30,374 bases of DNA from Acidobacteriota bacterium (GTDB lineage: Bacteria; Acidobacteriota; UBA6911; RPQK01; DATIPO01): positions 1 to 30,374 of the forward strand of contig JANQFM010000410.1 in the NCBI GenBank assembly GCA_028277865.1. Direction: 5' to 3'. Within the stretch, counting starts at the first letter, position 1; each line of letters starts with the position of its first letter. The translations under genes were made by a program, and so were the position numbers. Of this stretch, positions 1 through 10,744 are shown one piece after another. The notes beneath the pieces were generated by a model that saw nothing but the letters and a program-made list of their open reading frames with translations, ran no database searches and was not told where the DNA came from.

Positions 1-2272
1 ATGAAAAACCAAGCCCGACAGCAAGCCCGAACAAAACGGGTTTTGCGCCTTGCCACAAGACTTTCCTAAGTATGCTGCTGCGCCGAGCGCCAACGGTCAT
101 CCTCACACCCAATTCGCGCTTGCGGGACTGCACCCAGAAGGCCTTTTGGGCGAAGATCCCCAAGGCGGCAACCGCCACGGCCATCAGGCCCAGCCAATTC
201 AGCACCGTCTTCCCCAATTTCATCGCCCTCAAGTTCTTTTCCACAAACGCGTCGACCTCCGTCGCATAAACGTAATAGGGAATTGCAGGCAAGGCCTTGA
301 GTTGCTGGATGATTTTGGCTACCAGCCCTTCTACAACTCTCACCAGCAAATAATCGCCAGCCCGATGGATGCCTGTACCCTGATACTGGCTCAGGGGCAG
401 GTAGCACTGGAGCCTGGGCTCGGCGAAGACGGAAGTCTCGACGCGATGATCGTCCAGCACACCGACCACCCGCCTGCAGTGGGGATCCCGAAAGGCGTAA
501 AGGCAGTCGCCGATCGGATTGCGGTCTCCCCAAATCTGCTTGGCCAGTCGCTGGTTGACAATGGCCACCTTTTCAGAGGTCGAGGAATCCCGGTGGGTGA
601 AGGCCCGGCCTGCCGACAGGGTCATTCCCATGGATGAGATATAGCCGGGAGAGATGCCGGAAAGATAGATGCCCTCGCCTAGTTGAAGCGGTTGCCTGCT
701 CGGGCCGCGCATGCTGGTGACTTGAAACCTGCGGAAAGGCCCGGAGGTTGCGGTGGCTGTGGAAATCACGCCGGGCAAGGATCGGGCTCTGTCCTCAAAC
801 CTGCTGAAAAGTTGCCCGATGGATGCCTCGGAGTGCCCCAGCTTGCGCAAGTTGGGCACCTCCAGCATGACCAGGTTGCCGGGCGCAAAGCCCAGCCCGC
901 TGACGGCGTTGCTGATGGTGGTGTGGAAAAGTGCGGTCTGGGCCAGAAAGCAGACTGCGACGGCGACCTGAATGAACACCAGGATGGTTCGCCCTTGCCC
1001 GGCCTTAAGGAATCCGGGCCGCCACTGGCCTTGGAACCTGGGGGCCATTCCCACCAGCACCGACTGCAAGCCTGCCGGCATTCCCGTGGCGCACATGACT
1101 GCCAGGACGGTGGCAGCCAAAACGAGGGCAAACCAGGCGCTGAACAGGTCTGAGATGGCTGACTGCGGTAAGCCCATCGACTTTTCGAGTGTCCTGACGA
1201 TCACGAAAAAGAAGATCAAGGCCACTGCGGTGGCGGCAATCGACATGACCAGCCCCTCGGCGACCGCCTGGCGGAATATTCTGCCTCTGGTTGCGCCCAG
1301 CTGGATTTGGATCACGGTTGCCTGCCAGCGCCGCAGGTTTCTGAAAAGCCCCAATGCCGCGACATTGGCGCAGGCAGCCCCCAGGCCCAGCAGGGCCATG
1401 AGCGACCCCCAGACCAGCATAGTTTCGGAAAGCCGCGTCGGCTGGCTGAGCCTGTTGACTTCCAGATGCACGTCGAGGACCTTCTGTCCGGCCAATAGGG
1501 AGGCCTCGGATCCCAGCAGCGCTCCCTTCAGAAGCGACTGGATGCGGGCCGGGCTGTGGCCGTTGCGGGGCCGCAGCAGGATCTTGAAGAGCCTTTTGTC
1601 CGCATCGGCCAGGATCTCCAAGGCCGAGCTGGCAAAGGGGTAGGCGAAGCCCAGCGAAGGCTCCAGCGGCAGCCAGATCTCGGAAGGCTTGTGGGACAAG
1701 CCTCGGAAACCCTCCGGCAGGACGCCGATCAGGCTGTGAGGTTGGTCGGCAATCGTCAACTCGACGCGCCCATCGGCCCTCGAGTCGGGAAAGGCCTCTT
1801 TCCAGAAGCCGTGATCCGCTATCGCCACCGGGTCGCCGGATGTGCCCCAGACGCATTCCTTTTCAGAAAACGGGCGGCCCATGACAGGCTTGACACCCAA
1901 CAGCTCGAAGTAGTTGCCGCTGACCAGCGTGGCTTCGACTTCCTGCGAAGCCACGCCCTTGCCGAAGCCGACGGGAGCACGGAATTCGCAAGCCACATCG
2001 GCGCTTTCCCCAAGAATCTCCCGAATGTGCTCGAACAGCGGGTAGGAAGTCCGCTCCACCCGGACCCGGCTGCCCGATAAGGAACTCTGGTCGAAGCTCA
2101 ATTCAAAGAGGTTGCCAGGCTGCAAAACATGGGGGGGCATCGTGGAGAGGTTGGTCTTCAGGATGGTGATGAAGGCCAGATTGACGCCGATTCCCAAAGC
2201 CAGGATGACTGTGGCGGTGACAAAGAAAGGCTTGTCCCGCCAAACGCTCCTCCAAGCGGTCCTCAAGATCAA
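1..2272 (-). CDS. MacB/FtsX-type duplicated ABC permease (ADOP-like), 3' end runs off the window; not in the ORF track
   Basis: Hand translation gives an unbroken frame from TTG 2272 (GAGGAG 8 nt upstream) to base 1. Family motifs: ILALGIGVNLAFIT, VSGNYFELLGVKPVMGRPF, CANVAALG..IQLGATRGRIFRQ, LVFIQVA, GFAPGNL, SLPGV, ISPGYISSMGMTLSAGRAF, VAIVNQ, RELGVRMTVGA. Confidence 0.88.
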   Translation of the reverse strand, partial: MILRTAWRSVWRDKPFFVTATVILALGIGVNLAFITILKTNLSTMPPHVLQPGNLFELSFDQSSLSGSRVRVERTSYPLFEHIREILGESADVACEFRAPVGFGKGVASQEVEATLVSGNYFELLGVKPVMGRPFSEKECVWGTSGDPVAIADHGFWKEAFPDSRADGRVELTIADQPHSLIGVLPEGFRGLSHKPSEIWLPLEPSLGFAYPFASSALEILADADKRLFKILLRPRNGHSPARIQSLLKGALLGSEASLLAGQKVLDVHLEVNRLSQPTRLSETMLVWGSLMALLGLGAACANVAALGLFRNLRRWQATVIQIQLGATRGRIFRQAVAEGLVMSIAATAVALIFFFVIVRTLEKSMGLPQSAISDLFSAWFALVLAATVLAVMCATGMPAGLQSVLVGMAPRFQGQWRPGFLKAGQGRTILVFIQVAVAVCFLAQTALFHTTISNAVSGLGFAPGNLVMLEVPNLRKLGHSEASIGQLFSRFEDRARSLPGVISTATATSGPFRRFQVTSMRGPSRQPLQLGEGIYLSGISPGYISSMGMTLSAGRAFTHRDSSTSEKVAIVNQRLAKQIWGDRNPIGDCLYAFRDPHCRRVVGVLDDHRVETSVFAEPRLQCYLPLSQYQGTGIHRAGDYLLVRVVEGLVAKIIQQLKALPAIPYYVYATEVDAFVEKNLRAMKLGKTVLNWLGLMAVAVAALGIFAQKAFWVQSRKRELGVRMTVGARRSSILRKVLWQGAKPVLFGLAVGLGFS

Positions 2273-2349
2273 ATCAGCTTCTCCTCAACAGGGCTGCATT
2301 GCCGGCATCCCGAGCGGCCCCGAATCTCAACCTCCGGGTACCGATCTAG

Positions 2350-2370
2350 GAACTGCGAACCGCGAACTCT
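2350..2370 (+). repeat. Three-unit heptamer tandem repeat
   Basis: GAACTGC GAACCGC GAACTCT in the spacer between the TonB-like gene and the permease. Confidence 0.5.
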
Positions 2371-2378
2371 CTGTTCAT

Positions 2379-3101
2379 TCAGCGGCACCCTGTGCAGGGA
2401 ACGCCGTCGCCGGCACGGCTCACATGTTCGAACCCCTCGCCCCGGAGATAGGATTCGGCAGTCCTGCAGCGATCCATCGGCGTTCGTGTGCAGTCAATCG
2501 AGACCGGGATTTGCGGGTTGAGTTCGACAGGCCCCCGCACCTGGAGTTCGTCCAAAGGGATGTTCAAGGCCTTTGGAGTGCTCTCCATCTCGAATTCGTC
2601 CCTCACCCTCACATCGACAATCTGAGCCGTTTCCTTAATGTCCGCCTGCAGGCCGCTGGCCCGCTGACGCTCGATCATCTCCTGCGGCGACAGCAATCTG
2701 CCCATGCCATCTTGGTTGACCAAGTACAGGGTCACCTTGCCGGTGATTTCGACGGGACGGCCCCGAATCGTCGTTTCCGAGAACGCCCAGCCCCGCAAGG
2801 AGGAGCGGAGGGTTTCGGCCAATGCAGGATGAGGGGATTGAACGATCGACACCTGAGAGACCTTGCCTTTCGTGTCGATCACCAGCGAGCTGACCACCAC
2901 TCCCTGGCCGCCGGCCCTGGAAACAGTCGACGGCACAGAAATGGGCTTGGAGCGGATCATCTTCCGCAGCAAGGCCCTCTCCCCGATCCAAATCCGGCCG
3001 GCGTCCGAGGGCACCGAATCCCACCTCGCCACCGCCGCTGCCAAACACAACAGCCCGCCACCTGCCAGCATTGTCTTCAACGGCAAGCCGGAGATACGCA
3101 T
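2379..3101 (-). CDS. Exported TonB C-terminal domain fused to a rhodanese-like domain (240 aa)
   Basis: Start moved to ATG 3101 (MRISG..). Hydrophobic N-terminus LAGGGLLCLAAAVA. TonB-C pattern GQGVVVSSLVIDTKGKVSQVSIVQSPHPAL..WAF..GRPV. Rhodanese pattern IVDVRVRDEF..ALNIPLDEL..IDC..AESYLRGEGFEHV. Confidence 0.78.
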   Translation of the reverse strand: MRISGLPLKTMLAGGGLLCLAAAVARWDSVPSDAGRIWIGERALLRKMIRSKPISVPSTVSRAGGQGVVVSSLVIDTKGKVSQVSIVQSPHPALAETLRSSLRGWAFSETTIRGRPVEITGKVTLYLVNQDGMGRLLSPQEMIERQRASGLQADIKETAQIVDVRVRDEFEMESTPKALNIPLDELQVRGPVELNPQIPVSIDCTRTPMDRCRTAESYLRGEGFEHVSRAGDGVPCTGCR

Positions 3102-3205
3102 AACTACCCTTATTTCTTCTGAGGCTAATCTTATGTGAATTGAATCAGTGTGGGGCGCGGGGAATCCTGTTTCCAGAAGCCCAGCACCCAAGCAGCCATT
3201 TGGCG

Positions 3206-3427
3206 TTAGCTGAACGCCGATCTCCCCCCACAAGAACCGCTTACGGAGCAGCCGGAGCCATCAGCGTGGGGCGTGCAGTATTCGTGCCCGACTTTATGGC
3301 CAGCCTGGCAGCCGTGAATGCCATCGTCCGTTTGCATGCATTCTTCACAAGCCAGCGAATGGCTGAGCGGGATCCAGCAGATCGCCGCAGTCAACAGGAT
3401 GGCCAGAAATACTCTTCTCGGATTCAT
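3206..3427 (-). CDS. Small secreted Cys/His-rich protein (73 aa; about 47 aa mature, 6 Cys, 4 His)
   Basis: Strong RBS GAGGAGG before ATG 3427; signal peptide MNPRRVFLAILLTAAICWIPLSHSLA; sigma70-like promoter upstream. Confidence 0.75.
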   Translation of the reverse strand: MNPRRVFLAILLTAAICWIPLSHSLACEECMQTDDGIHGCQAGHKVGHEYCTPHADGSGCSVSGSCGGRSAFS

Positions 3428-3494
3428 GGAGCCTCCTCGATCTTGCTTCAAAAAATGTGTTGTACTTCGAACAGGAAACAACACTGCCGTGAGG

Positions 3495-3523
3495 ATCATA
3501 GCCTATTATGCTCTTCACATCAA
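3495..3523 (-). promoter_or_regulatory. sigma70-type promoter for the peptide/TonB-rhodanese/permease unit
   Basis: TTGATG (3523-3518), 17 nt, TATGAT (3500-3495) in a visibly AT-rich patch about 67 nt upstream of ATG 3427. Confidence 0.65.
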
Positions 3524-3686
3524 ATACCAAGTTAATTTGCAAATCAAAGAGATCCATTGAGGGCGAACTTCTCTGGGAAGGAAACCAAAAGGCACGAAAT
3601 CCCTCACGAACAACTCACAAGAGAGCAGATTCCGCGTCAATCTCGTAAGGCTTTCGCGATCATTCGCGGCTCCCCCCCGGAACTGG

Positions 3687-3754
3687 GTGCTGCTTTCCGT
3701 TTACGCTGACGTAGCGGCGGCCGAAGAATAGCAGCGTATTTACGGAAAGCAGCA

Positions 3755-3755
<1 letters not shown>
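3687..3755 (-). repeat. Long inverted repeat / stem-loop immediately after the clpB stop
   Basis: GTGCTGCTTTCCGT (3687-3700) pairs with ACGGAAAGCAGCAC (3742-3755), 14 bp perfect. Inner TACGCTG/CAGCGTA adds 7 bp. No U-tract. Confidence 0.7.
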
Positions 3756-6388
<2,633 letters not shown>

Positions 6389-6573: not shown

Positions 6574-6603
6574 CTTGATAGCAATAGAGCAAGATCTTAG
6601 TAT
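6574..6603 (+). promoter_or_regulatory. Putative hsp20-grpE promoter
   Basis: TTGATA (6575-6580), 17 nt, TAGTAT (6598-6603); RBS GAGGA at 6623-6627. Confidence 0.55.
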
Positions 6604-6634
6604 ATGCCGCAAGGTGGTAAATGAGGACAAAACT

Positions 6635-7066
6635 ATGATGCAAGACCCCTTTCGAGACCTGATGAACCTGCAGGAACGGATGCGGCGCCTGTTTGAAGAA
6701 AGCCTGCAGTCCGTCACCTCCAAGGGAACTCCTTCCCAAAGCTGGACTCCGGCTGTCGACATCTATGAAACGGCCCAGGAAGTCGTATTGGAGGCCGAAC
6801 TGCCTCAGGTCAGCAAGGAGCACATCGACATTCAGATCGAGGGCAACACCCTGGTGTTGCACGGGCAGCGCGAGCTGGCTGAGTCCGTAGGCCAGCAGCG
6901 CAGCTACCATCAGCGCGAACGCGCCTTCGGATCCTTTCAGCGGCGCTTTCCGATACGCTCTCACATCCATGCCGAACATGTGCATGCGCGCTTCCATGAC
7001 GGTGTGTTGAGCATCCGAATCCCCAAAAAACAAGAAAGCCCGGCCCGGCGCATAGCCATCGATTGA
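6635..7066 (+). CDS. Hsp20/alpha-crystallin small heat-shock protein
   Basis: Start moved to ATG 6635 after GAGGA. DPFRDLMNLQERMRRLFEE, WTPAVDIYET, ELPQVSKEHIDI, RERAFGSFQRRF, ARFHDGVLSIRIPK, C-terminal I-x-I (RRIAID). Confidence 0.95.
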   Translation: MMQDPFRDLMNLQERMRRLFEESLQSVTSKGTPSQSWTPAVDIYETAQEVVLEAELPQVSKEHIDIQIEGNTLVLHGQRELAESVGQQRSYHQRERAFGSFQRRFPIRSHIHAEHVHARFHDGVLSIRIPKKQESPARRIAID

Positions 7067-7734: not shown

Positions 7735-7790
7735 CTTTTTGGATTTTCGGATGTCCCTTTTCGCGTCTTTTCGCGGGCTTCCACTCCCCG

Positions 7791-7799
7791 TGCTAGAAT
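7791..7799 (+). promoter_or_regulatory. Extended -10 promoter element for amrB
   Basis: TGcTAGAAT, 18 nt upstream of ATG 7818. Confidence 0.45.
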
Positions 7800-7817
7800 G
7801 GCCAAAAGGGTCTGGAA

Positions 7818-8624
7818 ATGATTCGTAAAGCAGCATTTGCCGGAAGCTTCTACCCCTCGGACGCCCAGGATTTGCGGGCTGCCTTGGGTCGCCTTCTGCA
7901 GCCAAGTGCCGCCAAGGCCCCCGCCAAGGCCATCATCGCCCCCCACGCCGGCTACTATTACTCGGGCCAAGTGGCTGCAGCCACCTATTCCTCGGTGGTG
8001 CTGCCGCGCCGCTACATCCTGCTCTGCCCCAACCACACCGGTGTCGGCGCACCCATCTCGATCCAGTCGGCGGGACGCTGGGAGACGCCCCTGGGAACGG
8101 TCAAGATCGACAAGGAAGTGGCTGACTTGGTGCGCAAGCACTGCCTGGTCGTGCAGGAAAGCCCTCAGGCACACAGCAAGGAGCACGCCATTGAGGTTCA
8201 CCTGCCATTTTTGCAGCAACTGCTGTCCGGCGGCTTCCGGTTCGTTCCCATTTCAGTGGGGACAGTCCGGCTGGAGAGCTTGATGGAACTGGGGCGAGGT
8301 TTGGCAGCAGCCATTCGGGAGTGCGCTGATCCGGTGCTGCTGGTGGCCAGTTCGGATATGAATCACTTCGAGGATGCCGAGTCGACCCGCCGCAAGGACG
8401 CTCAGGCCATCGACTGCATCCGCCGCCTGGACAGCCGCAAGCTTTTTGAGACCGTCCATCGCTGCCAGATCTCGATGTGCGGCTACGGGACCGCCATCGC
8501 CGTGATCGAGGCGTCGCGCGCACAGGGCGCCACTCGGGCCGAGCTGGTGAGCTACAGCCATTCCGGAGAGGTCAACGGGGAGCTGTCCAGCGTCGTCGGC
8601 TACGCTGGCGTGGTGATCCACTGA
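7818..8624 (+). CDS. amrB: AmmeMemoRadiSam system protein B (MEMO1 family)
   Basis: IRKAAFAGSFYP, IIAPHAGYYYSG, LCPNHTG, WETPLG, EHAIEVHLPFLQ, VASSDMNHF, SMCGYG, VVGYAG. Confidence 0.93.
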   Translation: MIRKAAFAGSFYPSDAQDLRAALGRLLQPSAAKAPAKAIIAPHAGYYYSGQVAAATYSSVVLPRRYILLCPNHTGVGAPISIQSAGRWETPLGTVKIDKEVADLVRKHCLVVQESPQAHSKEHAIEVHLPFLQQLLSGGFRFVPISVGTVRLESLMELGRGLAAAIRECADPVLLVASSDMNHFEDAESTRRKDAQAIDCIRRLDSRKLFETVHRCQISMCGYGTAIAVIEASRAQGATRAELVSYSHSGEVNGELSSVVGYAGVVIH

Positions 8625-9084
8625 AACTGTGGCAAATGGCCACCGCCAGGGCGTCGGCTGCGTCGTGGGGCTGAGGGGGCGCTTGCATATTGAGCAGCGT
8701 CTTGACCATCATCTGGATCTGGCCTTTGTCCGCCCTTCCATAACCCACCACGGCCTTTTTGACTTCCAAAGGCGAGTACTCCAGCACCGGCAGCCCCGCT
8801 TCTGCAGCAGCCAGCAGGATCACCCCGCGGGCGTGGCCCAGCTTGAGGGCCGTTTTGACGTTGGCGGCGTAAAAGACCTCTTCCACAGCCACAACGTCGG
8901 GGGAATGCTCCTGGAGGAGCTCGCCCAGGCGCTTGTAGATTCGATGCAGGCGCTGCGGGAATCCGACTCCGCCGCCTGCGGCTTCGATCTTGCCGTGGCC
9001 CAGGCAGCACAGCCGGCTTCCCTGCGTCTCGATCACACCGTAGCCCGTCACCCTGCTGCCCGGATCCACCCCAAAAACTCGCAC
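8572..9084 (-). CDS. ruvC: Holliday junction resolvase RuvC
   Basis: GVDPGSRVTGYGVI, VAVEEVF, LKLGHARGV, EYSPLEVKKAVVGYGRADKGQIQMMV, DAADALAVAICH; GTG start with an in-frame stop 12 codons upstream. Confidence 0.97.
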   Translation of the reverse strand: MRVFGVDPGSRVTGYGVIETQGSRLCCLGHGKIEAAGGGVGFPQRLHRIYKRLGELLQEHSPDVVAVEEVFYAANVKTALKLGHARGVILLAAAEAGLPVLEYSPLEVKKAVVGYGRADKGQIQMMVKTLLNMQAPPQPHDAADALAVAICHSFSGSPRQRSRRRWTAPR

Positions 9085-9090
9085 CGGTGA

Positions 9091-9096
9091 ATCATA
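9091..9096 (-). promoter_or_regulatory. -10 element for a probably leaderless ruvC transcript
   Basis: TATGAT ends 6 nt before GTG 9084; no Shine-Dalgarno sequence. Confidence 0.45.
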
Positions 9097-9270
9097 GCTG
9101 GCAGGACGGACAAAATGTCAGTTGGAAGCGACCGGTAGACTTGTCCTCAAATAAGCGCATGCGAACGGATTCCGGAGTTTCACGCCTTCCAATCACGCTG
9201 TTCGGATAAGCGTTAACTTAATAAGGGCGGGTGTTTCCTTCCAGTTGCAGAAAAGGGGAATGGCGTCTTC

Positions 9271-9388
9271 ACCTGCTTCAGCAGGTTGCCCGAAAGCTTC
9301 AGCCTTTCGGGTTATTAGCCCAGTCCTTCAGGGCTGGGGACTGAGTGCACAAGGCAAATGCAAGCCCGTCTTTCAACGGGCTTTTCTC
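9271..9388. repeat. Cluster of four hairpins with TTCA-containing loops (REP/BIME-like)
   Basis: ACCTGC-TTCA-GCAGGT; CCCGAAAGC-TTCA-GCCTTTCGGG; CCCAGTCC-TTCA-GGGCTGGG; AAGCCCGT-CTTTCA-ACGGGCTT. Confidence 0.6.
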
Positions 9389-9490
9389 TGGGCTTCAGGC
9401 TCGGCTCCGGCAGACTTGGCGGAAATTGGGCAGCGACGTTCAGGGGGCCAAAGCCGGCTGCTGGAAGCCTGCCGCGCAGGATCTGCAGGC

Positions 9491-10744
9491 TCAGGGGACG
9501 CCAGGCGGGTCGAGCCGGACCAGCAGGTTGTAGGTGAAGTCAGCGCCCTCTCCGAAGAAAAAGTCTTCTACTCGGAGGATGTAGGTGCCGTCTTCCGGGA
9601 TCTCCATGCGCAGGAAGCCGTCGTCGCGGAATATCAACTCGTTTTGATCATTGACAGCCAAAACAATCCCATCAGGCCGCTCCACCGCCAGGTAAGTGTC
9701 CAGTACGGAAACGCCTTTTTCCGTGACGGTGTATACGGTCAGGACTTGGCCTTGGGTGGCTGCGATCTGAAAGAGATCCCTTCCGTCTTGGGTATCGATC
9801 ACTCCTGTCACATTGGCGGGCAGCGTCAAGGCCTGTGCGTCACCAACGCTGTTGTTGGGCTCCGCTTCAGGGGTTTCCTGGGTGGTGCCGCGGATGTCGA
9901 AGGCGCCGACGACCGGTCCAAAGTCATTGGCGACCGAGGTCAGGATTCCCGACTCCAAGCGCAAGGCCAGCAGTCCGAAATCGACCGCCGCCGAGACGCT
10001 GACGGATCCCCTGAAATTGTCCAGCCCTGGAAAAAGCGGGGGAGTGCCCGAGCCCGCCCCCAAAAAAGCGGAGGTATGTCCGTTCAAGCCCAAGGGCAGA
10101 ACGGTTGTTGCGCGTACCGTCCCGTCCAATTCGATGAGGCTGATCACGAATCCCTGTGCCGTCGGATCGGGCAGGTTGACGCGTTGAAATGCCCCGTTGG
10201 CCAAGGCCAGGCCCGTATTGATGAAGCGGGCGCTGTCCACTTCGGCTGGAAAGGTGTAGCTGCTGCGGGGGATATCGGCCCGTACGCCGACTTCGGTCTG
10301 CAGGGATCCGTCGGCCATGACCCGCAGCAGCAGGCTGCCCCGGACGGAGGCGCTGCTGGCGAATGTCAGGCGGCCGTAGCCGGGGACGGCGACTTCGGAA
10401 TCCAGGCTGAAGGGGATGATCCGGCTCTCGCCTGCGCCCAGCGGAAAAATCCGTTCTGCCTCCATTCCCGAGTCGGTCTCCAGCGCAAGGGGGGTGCCGT
10501 CGTCGGCGAAAAAGTCCAGCCGGACAGCCTCGTCGTCTTCATAGCCCTGGTTGGTCACGATGATTTCGCCTGAAAAGCCCCCTCCAGCGGCCAGTTGGGC
10601 AAAGGTGACGAACAGGCACCGAGAAGCGCCCGCGAGTTCCTGCGTGCAGTCAAAGCGGGGATCCCCGCCTGCTGTCAGGGAACCCGTCAAGAGAAAAACG
10701 GCTGCTGCAAAGTGCAAGACTGCTGCGGTTCGGCGATTCGGCAT
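9491..10744 (-). CDS. Secreted protein with a C-terminal PPC (pre-peptidase C-terminal)-like domain
   Basis: GGAGG RBS; signal peptide; C-terminal EAEPNNSVGDAQAL..DGRDLFQIAATQGQVLTV..LDTYLAV..VNDQ..GTYILRVEDF..YNLLV; N-terminal beta-rich domain not assignable. Confidence 0.8.
   Translation of the reverse strand: MPNRRTAAVLHFAAAVFLLTGSLTAGGDPRFDCTQELAGASRCLFVTFAQLAAGGGFSGEIIVTNQGYEDDEAVRLDFFADDGTPLALETDSGMEAERIFPLGAGESRIIPFSLDSEVAVPGYGRLTFASSASVRGSLLLRVMADGSLQTEVGVRADIPRSSYTFPAEVDSARFINTGLALANGAFQRVNLPDPTAQGFVISLIELDGTVRATTVLPLGLNGHTSAFLGAGSGTPPLFPGLDNFRGSVSVSAAVDFGLLALRLESGILTSVANDFGPVVGAFDIRGTTQETPEAEPNNSVGDAQALTLPANVTGVIDTQDGRDLFQIAATQGQVLTVYTVTEKGVSVLDTYLAVERPDGIVLAVNDQNELIFRDDGFLRMEIPEDGTYILRVEDFFFGEGADFTYNLLVRLDPPGVP

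Follow-up and report, generated by a model that had tools for sequence, protein, structure and literature searches.

A conserved gene cassette linking a secreted six-cysteine mini-protein, a TonB_C/rhodanese-like protein and a divergent ADOP-type permease in Acidobacteriota

A conserved three-gene envelope cassette

The stretch of DNA analysed here (the window) comprises 30,374 nucleotides at the start of contig JANQFM010000410.1 (labelled C322) of the Acidobacteriota bacterium assembly GCA_028277865.1 (labelled G000). Within its first 3523 bases, three co-oriented genes on the minus strand encode a secreted six-cysteine peptide, a protein in which a TonB_C domain is joined to a rhodanese-like domain, and a permease of the ADOP (acidobacterial duplicated orphan permease) type. 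The same set of peptide, TonB_C protein and ADOP-type permease was found in each of the nine lineages whose gene context could be read (ten loci), and the trio is very probably a conserved functional unit. That its members work together is supported by their linkage, by the fusion and fission of the TonB_C and rhodanese-like domains, by the fusion of a thioredoxin-like domain with a CxxC motif in some lineages, by invariant cysteines in all components, by the specificity of the rhodanese and permease subtypes to the cassette, and by a predicted complex of the first two products. New here are the six-cysteine peptides as a family, a rhodanese subtype specific to the cassette, the permease clade with its cysteine pair and the fixed association of these; the TonB_C and rhodanese folds as such are common. 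None of the Pfam, NCBIfam, PADLOC, PDB and ESM Atlas entries or publications that were found describes the set. The original prediction, made from the sequence without database searches, had not recognized the combination as a named system; this holds for the set, but the permease belongs to a named family (TIGR03434).

The first gene (3206–3427, minus strand) encodes the 73-aa peptide precursor and has a ribosome-binding site, GAGGAGG, 8 nt upstream of its ATG. It is followed by the gene for the TonB_C/rhodanese-like protein (2379–3101, minus strand; 240 aa), whose ATG start is backed by homologues that open with MRI or MRL, and by the permease gene (2–2272, minus strand), which starts with TTG behind a GAGGAG ribosome-binding site and encodes 757 aa inside the window. 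The genes are separated by 105 nt (first and second) and 106 nt (second and third), as had been predicted, and all three products open with a hydrophobic or transmembrane segment, in agreement with the envelope targeting that was originally proposed for them. The permease reading frame is cut by the end of the contig. Another contig of the assembly, C364, shares at its own positions 1–95, in the opposite orientation, 95 identical bases with positions 1–95 of the window and completes the permease open reading frame (ORF) in frame, supplying its last 56 residues (the final transmembrane helix and a C-terminus typical of the family) and a stop codon located 170 nt past base 1; C322 and C364 are thus very likely neighbours on the chromosome of G000. 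The flank beyond base 1 had been proposed as a place to look for an ATPase or membrane-fusion gene, and C364 shows neither, the permease being followed there by convergent genes. The window contig begins inside an ADOP gene, and many of the ADOP matches in this assembly (e.g., on C810, C652 and C429) lie at contig ends, which indicates that ADOP paralogues probably fragment the assembly.

Conservation of the gene neighbourhood had been set beforehand as a test of the original prediction, and the partners proved to be adjacent at every locus. The nine lineages are G000, G005, G007, L029/L030, L031–L033, L034, L035, the P0016 contig and L118. G005 and G007, each from a further family within the order of G000, were found by searching relatives with the 240-aa protein; in these metagenome-assembled genomes (contigs JBOGJG010000331 and JBFKLX010000015, respectively), a small ORF with an identical six-cysteine pattern precedes a TonB_C gene beside a rhodanese-like gene, and an ADOP of 816–817 aa comes next. 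Peptide, fusion protein and permease are encoded in L029/L030, L031–L033 and L118, and peptide, TonB_C protein and permease on the P0016 contig. In L034, the TonB_C protein is split from a thioredoxin-like/rhodanese-like protein and the permease gene is interrupted by IS21, and in L035, ORFs for the peptide, the TonB_C protein and the thioredoxin-like and rhodanese-like parts stand beside a divergently transcribed pair of PadR and ADOP genes. The TonB_C and rhodanese-like domains are thus encoded as one chain in G000, L029, L031 and L118 and by two genes in G005, G007, L034 and L035. Seven of the nine lineages were shown to encode the rhodanese-like domain; in one of the others it was deduced from protein length and in the other from an out-of-frame reading. 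The flanks of the cassette are unrelated among sites and include an HD-domain protein and YceD/fab genes, an Eco57I-type restriction-modification enzyme, IS21, and clpB.

The cassette is rare and its distribution patchy: it occurs in 3 of the 76 genomes of the order, and two strong matches were obtained among 401 genomes of the phylum. It was found in neither genome of the same genus, and the position downstream of clpB lacks it in both. In these two genomes (G001:C5, locus L108; G002:C264, locus L109), clpB is followed by a conserved block encoding an ABC-2 type transporter (an ATPase plus two permeases), a YjbQ-like protein and a site-2 protease with a CBS domain; because both keep this block past clpB and lack the cassette, the region downstream of clpB in G000 has evidently been rearranged.

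A family of secreted six-cysteine mini-proteins

In the 73-aa precursor, an N-terminal signal of approximately 26 aa precedes the mature mini-protein, which is approximately 47 aa long. The mature part contains six cysteines, as originally predicted, arranged as C-x2-C-x9-C-x10-C-x8-C-x5-C with the core motif C-E-E-C-[VM]-Q-x-D-x-G, and a seventh cysteine lies in the signal sequence. Profile and word searches over collections of 1.8 and 5.8 billion proteins recovered a family of only 12 distinct sequences, whose identity to the window peptide ranges from 64% down to 29%. In the alignment of the 12, the six cysteines and D34, G36, G47, P53 and G57 are invariant; conservation concerns Cys, Asp, Gly, Pro and Gln, and the four histidines of the window peptide are not conserved. 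No relative was identified in Pfam, NCBIfam, the PDB or the ESM Atlas: the search of the Atlas with the peptide returned generic small secreted proteins having few features in common with it, and the peptide profile matched PDB sequences at chance level only. The peptides constitute a new family of secreted six-cysteine mini-proteins.

Two other assignments were considered for the precursor and rejected. Export by the Tat pathway is contradicted by the n-regions, in which a twin arginine occurs only in the window peptide and in P0006 (2 of the 12), the remaining n-regions being poor in lysine and arginine and lacking RR. A precursor of a ribosomally synthesized and post-translationally modified peptide is contradicted by the absence of maturase, radical SAM, cyclase and peptidase genes from all loci and by an N-terminus that has the features of a Sec-type signal.

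An initial word search with the single sequence recovered only the query, and a pattern scan of the genome contigs recovered only the two peptide loci already known. A scan of the phylum genomes yielded two weak additional matches, in G444 and G265. The former (G444:C150, locus L068, 1237–1626) is an ORF of 129 aa with a signal-like N-terminus and a C-terminal six-cysteine segment of near-identical spacing that ends in GLGC-x5-C-G; TonB_C, rhodanese and ADOP genes are absent within 3 kb of it, and its relationship to the peptide family, if any, may be a distant one.

The TonB_C/rhodanese-like protein and its predicted complex with the peptide

The 240-aa product of the second gene begins with a hydrophobic anchor or signal (residues ~11–26), followed by a TonB_C domain (36–137), a linker helix (139–154) and a rhodanese-fold domain (160–235). 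An AlphaFold2 model of the protein (pLDDT 82, pTM 0.71) contains an anchor helix at residues ~16–26. The TonB_C domain scored 30.8 bits in Pfam (cut-off 24.6), and its structural matches in Foldseek included the TonB C-terminal domain 6i97_D at a TMt of 0.83 (range 0.73–0.83 for TonB and FusB domains, with a FusB–ferredoxin complex among the matches). The traits of a TonB transducer are absent from the sequence and the model: a proline-rich linker is missing, the anchor has no histidine and thus no S-x3-H motif, and the domain starts approximately 10 residues past the anchor. Since it has no proline-rich linker, the protein cannot act as a periplasm-spanning TonB.

The C-terminal domain reached 14.8 bits with the Pfam Rhodanese family (PF00581), below the threshold of 22.2 bits, which is exceeded in relatives (30.1 and 23.9 bits). 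Its Foldseek matches, to single-domain rhodaneses, included 3k9r, 3hix and 2jtq, the last being Escherichia coli PspE (TMt 0.75, root-mean-square deviation 1.7 Å, 28% identity), and a profile built from seven sequences of the domain matched 1yt8 best among PDB sequences (2.7e-11) and PspE with an E-value of 9e-7. The window protein carries cysteines at the active-site position (C204), eight residues further on (C212) and at the C-terminus (C236 and C239); in the seven-sequence alignment, C204, C212 and the C-terminal cysteine are invariant, the last usually standing within a CxxC motif. A profile of this subtype scored 129–157 bits in cassette genomes only, any other rhodanese in the 401 genomes of the phylum reaching at most 56 bits. 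In G005, L034 and L035, the rhodanese-like protein opens with a transmembrane anchor and a thioredoxin-like domain with a conserved CxxC motif, the matches of which are weak and below the Pfam thresholds (AhpC-TSA 0.0028, Redoxin 0.02; ResA E-value 0.014).

Modelling of the peptide with its neighbours had been proposed together with the original prediction. When the mature peptide and residues 35–240 of the second gene product were modelled as a complex, ipSAE values of 0.88, 0.88 and 0.87 were obtained, the best control reaching 0.01; the runs shared at least 79% of their contacts, and the pLDDT of the partner was at least 66. Of 80 solved complexes, 58 attained this mark, as did 2 of 110 mismatched pairs; these figures are approximate, because the alignments used here were made in this analysis. 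The modelled peptide lies between the two domains, its segments MQTDD, IHGCQAG and EYCTPHADG contacting residues 35–43 and 108–119 of the TonB_C domain and residues 183–188, 208–217 and 236 of the rhodanese-fold domain, and the conserved peptide motifs QTDDG-x-HGC and C-x-P-x3-G are located at this interface. The peptide therefore probably binds the TonB_C/rhodanese-like protein, as judged by these models. A TonB_C domain without a linker and a rhodanese fold with additional cysteines would together make up a predicted peptide clamp, a role for these two common folds that is unusual and previously undescribed.

A divergent clade of ADOP permeases

ADOPs are often annotated together with PadR regulators (TIGR03433). 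To our knowledge, the family has neither an assigned function nor an assigned ligand or partner, and its full name is mentioned only in passing in the literature that was found. The window permease, 56 residues short in the copy that was scored, matched the ADOP family of NCBIfam (TIGR03434) with 386.4 bits, residues 3–756 aligning with positions 5–746 of the 803-position profile, against a cut-off of 622.3 bits; relatives of the same clade scored 416, 443, 526, 585, 627 and 642 bits, two of them above the cut-off. Pfam identified two MacB_PCD and two FtsX domains, and the protein has approximately 813 aa after joining with C364. By its score it stands at the edge of the ADOP family as a divergent member.

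The G000 assembly (6.6 Mb, 1125 contigs) contains at least 67 ADOP matches out of 110 first-look candidates, and ADOPs are among the largest paralogous families in Acidobacteriota. In a quick IQ-TREE analysis of the seven cassette-linked permeases and 30 canonical ADOPs of G000, the linked permeases formed one clade apart from the others (SH-aLRT 100), and they were also separate from nine further low-scoring ADOPs added in a FastTree analysis. A pair of cysteines in the second periplasmic domain (C590 and C599 in window numbering) is present in all seven linked permeases and in none of the 39 other ADOPs of G000. At a paralogous locus of the same genome (C46), only a rhodanese-like gene accompanies a permease that belongs to this clade. 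The cassette thereby gives one branch of the ADOPs fixed and specific partners, which constitute the first testable partner set for the family.

Proposed mechanism and alternative explanations

The scheme that we favour, as a possibility rather than a probability when taken as a whole, is periplasmic capture and thiol–disulfide handling of a self-made peptide, followed by its export through the permease or by self-protection. In this scheme, the Sec machinery would export the 73-aa precursor, and cleavage of the signal would release the peptide of ~47 aa, whose six cysteines presumably form three disulfides. The second gene product, at or near the inner membrane, would clamp the peptide between its short-form TonB_C domain and its atypical rhodanese-fold domain. 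The three invariant cysteines of the latter could carry out or check thiol–disulfide exchange on the peptide, assisted in some lineages by the fused thioredoxin-like domain. The ADOP permease, with its clade-specific cysteine pair, would then receive the folded peptide from the clamp and, like MacB-fold proteins, act from the periplasmic side, with the outcome that the peptide is either expelled outward or prevented from reaching the membrane of its producer. In this scheme we infer the redox chemistry, what the permease does and where its energy comes from, as well as the final destination and activity of the peptide. The suggestion in the original prediction that the cysteine-bearing rhodanese domain acts on the peptide is thus backed indirectly, by the predicted complex, the fusion and fission of domains, the CxxC thioredoxin-like fusion and the invariant cysteines; as a whole, the original interpretation is supported. 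An accessory function, in competition or self-protection, would fit this self-contained cassette because of its patchy distribution and its mobile neighbours (IS21 and restriction genes).

Should the peptide be an exported antimicrobial or a signal, the cassette would represent a new route of peptide handling in Acidobacteriota, whose cell envelope has hardly been explored. It also offers a small, expressible candidate ligand together with defined residues, namely the six cysteines of the peptide, C204, C212 and C239 of the clamp, and C590 and C599 of the permease. A bolder generalization, which we consider decidedly unlikely, is that ADOPs, as MacB-type fused dimers without an ATPase, are periplasmic receivers of self-made disulfide-rich mini-proteins and that a thiol–disulfide relay runs from the peptide through the clamp to the cysteine pair of the permease. 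If true, this would be a new, nucleotide-independent route of peptide secretion or signalling and the first functional model for one of the largest orphan families of Acidobacteriota.

Several observations weigh against capture, redox handling and export as set out above. The peptide modelled alone yielded an AlphaFold2 prediction of low confidence (pLDDT 56.5, pTM 0.30), which extends to its disulfide pattern and fold class. The confident interface of the complex lies near C204 and C212, on the loop and the helix, and includes C236, but it excludes C204 and C212 themselves. The active-site loop of the rhodanese-fold domain is variable in the seven sequences, rather hydrophobic, and devoid of the usual glycine and basic residues; the first cysteine of the terminal CxxC motif is absent in three of the seven, although the second is invariant; and a thioredoxin-like domain is missing from the fusion protein encoded in the window. 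Genes for an ABC ATPase, a MacA-type adaptor and an outer-membrane factor are absent in and beside all ten loci, no search having been made for partners encoded elsewhere, and expulsion in the manner of MacB is consequently left with neither a visible energy source nor an exit duct. The only hint of co-transcription is a contig of 196 nt from a coral metatranscriptome library that is 100% identical to positions 2264–2459 (minus strand) and runs from the end of the second gene through the entire 106-nt spacer to the ninth nucleotide of the permease gene; it hints weakly at read-through from the second gene into the permease gene, and carry-over of DNA is possible. Finally, release of the peptide from the cell is putative, as is any toxicity of the peptide.

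The main rival to export or self-protection is sensing, in which the peptide would be a self-made ligand in the periplasm or at the surface, serving as an autocrine cue or redox sentinel, the TonB_C/rhodanese-like protein a co-receptor and the ADOP a transducer, not a transporter, with its output through a regulator such as PadR. BceB and FtsX, for example, sense or regulate. A permease without an ATPase at every locus suits sensing better than pumping, redox-active cysteines throughout the components would suit a thiol-based switch, and sensory relatives of MacB are established (PMC5985334). In L035, moreover, the linked permease has a cytoplasmic "permease prefix" domain and is accompanied by PadR (TIGR03433, 143 bits), the pair being divergent from the peptide operon. 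However, the cassettes of eight of the nine lineages contain no regulator gene and their permeases no prefix domain, a kinase or other output component is conserved nowhere among the loci, and PadR adjoins only 1 of 38 sampled ADOP loci in G000, a weak count in that many contigs are short. Sensing is accordingly rather unlikely, although it comes closer than any other alternative.

A role in sulfur or metal trafficking, in which the rhodanese-fold domain loads sulfane sulfur on the peptide cysteines or the peptide is a periplasmic metal carrier passed on by the permease, is improbable. The conserved cysteine at the catalytic position, the resemblance of fold and profile to PspE and persulfide-handling enzymes, and the four histidines of the window peptide would be consistent with it; these histidines, however, vary among the 12 peptides, the conserved glycine and basic residues are missing from the active-site loop, and genes for sulfur oxidation, Fe–S metabolism or metal resistance are linked to the cassette at no locus. 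FusB serves ferredoxin uptake and HasB serves a hemophore receptor, and the second gene product could by analogy be a dedicated TonB paralogue that energizes an outer-membrane receptor re-importing the secreted peptide. The TonB_C fold, its match to the FusB–ferredoxin complex and the modelled contact of the peptide with TonB_C strands point in this direction, yet the missing linker and anchor histidine and the position of the domain close to the anchor argue against it, as does the lack of genes for a TonB-dependent receptor or for ExbBD at any locus, and re-uptake is barely credible. That three unrelated envelope genes merely came to lie together downstream of clpB could be argued from a promoter match that is by itself within chance, from spacers of ~105 nt that are long for an operon, and from spacer hairpins that are no better than those of shuffled sequences (z −1.39 and −0.27), but this is refuted by the recurrence of the same gene set in nine lineages with differing flanks and peptide identities down to 29%, by the alternation of fused and split TonB_C and rhodanese-like domains, and by the cassette-specific rhodanese subtype and permease clade.

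Comparison with known systems

Like other ADOPs, the cassette permease matches the 803-position profile over its full length, combines two MacB_PCD and FtsX halves in one chain, is an orphan in that no ATPase gene lies nearby, and has numerous paralogues within its genome; the L035 cassette also keeps the layout with PadR and the prefix domain. The cassette permeases differ in forming a separate clade with lower scores (386–642 bits) and a periplasmic cysteine pair, and in having the peptide, the TonB_C domain and the rhodanese-like domain as fixed partners, which the 39 other sampled ADOPs lack.

One of the two closest functional parallels is offered by the heat-stable enterotoxin STII, a Sec-exported and Dsb-oxidized peptide that is expelled from the periplasm by MacAB–TolC, a type VII ABC system acting by mechanotransmission (PMC5985334). 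A small peptide exported by Sec, its oxidation in the periplasm and a MacB-fold permease on the periplasmic side would be common to both systems. The cassette, in contrast, has no fused or adjacent ATPase and no gene for a MacA adaptor or TolC; its permease is a fused pseudo-dimer, and a dedicated protein for binding and redox handling is predicted to be encoded with the peptide. The other, a precedent for self-protection, is the FtsX-type permease YknYZ, which guards Bacillus against its own SDP peptide toxin (PMC4887032). YknWXYZ likewise ties a permease of the FtsX/MacB type to an endogenous cysteine-containing peptide; it differs in being from a Gram-positive organism, in having the ATPase YknY and the adaptor-like YknX, in being encoded apart from the peptide gene, and in having no TonB_C or rhodanese partner.

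The second gene product has counterparts for each of its domains. E. coli PspE (PDB 2JTQ), a single-domain rhodanese, is likewise periplasmic, has a closely similar fold and carries a cysteine at the catalytic position, whereas in the cassette domain the loop is variable and non-canonical, a second invariant cysteine stands at +8, the C-terminus bears a cysteine or CxxC motif, and a TonB_C or thioredoxin-like domain is fused. The TonB paralogues FusB and HasB, which bind protein cargo or dedicated receptors, share the TonB_C fold (TMt 0.73–0.83), through whose strands the predicted contact of the cassette protein with its ligand also runs; however, the cassette protein lacks both a proline-rich linker and an anchor motif of the ExbBD type, a TonB-dependent receptor is not encoded nearby, and it cannot span the periplasm as an energy transducer. 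The rhodanese-like proteins of G005, L034 and L035 resemble TlpA and ResA oxidoreductases in combining a transmembrane anchor with a CxxC thioredoxin-like domain; the match is weak, the domain is missing from the window protein and, unlike in TlpA and ResA, it is fused to a rhodanese fold.

Transcription signals, variant copies and neighbouring genes

A putative promoter, TTGATG-17-TATGAT (3495–3523, minus strand), is located approximately 68 nt upstream of the peptide ATG, within an AT-rich patch (GC 0.48 at 3301–3750 against 0.58–0.65 to either side) that had been correctly noted from the sequence. It matches at 9 of 12 positions and is the only such site in 2200–3800. The original prediction had described it as a clean sigma70 promoter; the site is present and well placed, but it is not statistically exceptional by itself, because shuffled sequences yield 0.6 ± 0.8 such sites in comparison with the one observed. 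The strong hairpin that had been reported between clpB and the cassette was confirmed (3687–3755, minus strand): it has an outer stem of 14 bp and a free energy of −43.7 kcal/mol (z −3.0), and it starts on the final base of the clpB stop codon. No U tract follows it, and a terminator scan called nothing there.

Some copies of the cassette in other lineages appear altered. The fusion protein P0005 (225 aa) of L031 (~1640–1720), and also of L032 and L033, was called with a frameshift, the other frame containing the conserved second cysteine, the sequence GFEEV and the terminal CxxC motif; since the frameshift is seen in three assemblies, it represents either a real frameshift in the population or a shared sequencing error. 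In L034 (3409–6191), the permease ends after 203 aa of MacB_PCD at an inserted IS21-type element (IstB/IstA), and this copy is evidently disrupted. In L035 (6864–7736), the thioredoxin-like/rhodanese-like protein is spread over two ORFs (109 aa and 148 aa), and the 109-aa one ends within the thioredoxin-like domain just past the CxxC motif, owing to either a frameshift or a genuine split. The same locus contains a gene with a faint Sigma70_r2 match (7747–8319, minus strand), possibly encoding an extracytoplasmic function sigma factor, and a second TonB_C gene (9070–9585, minus strand); the same sigma-like gene was found 3′ of the cassette on a second contig from a different sample.

Within the window, an ORF resembling a small heat-shock protein with an alpha-crystallin domain, judged by its sequence only, lies upstream of clpB in divergent orientation (6575–7066, plus strand), which suggests that it forms a heat-shock gene pair with clpB.

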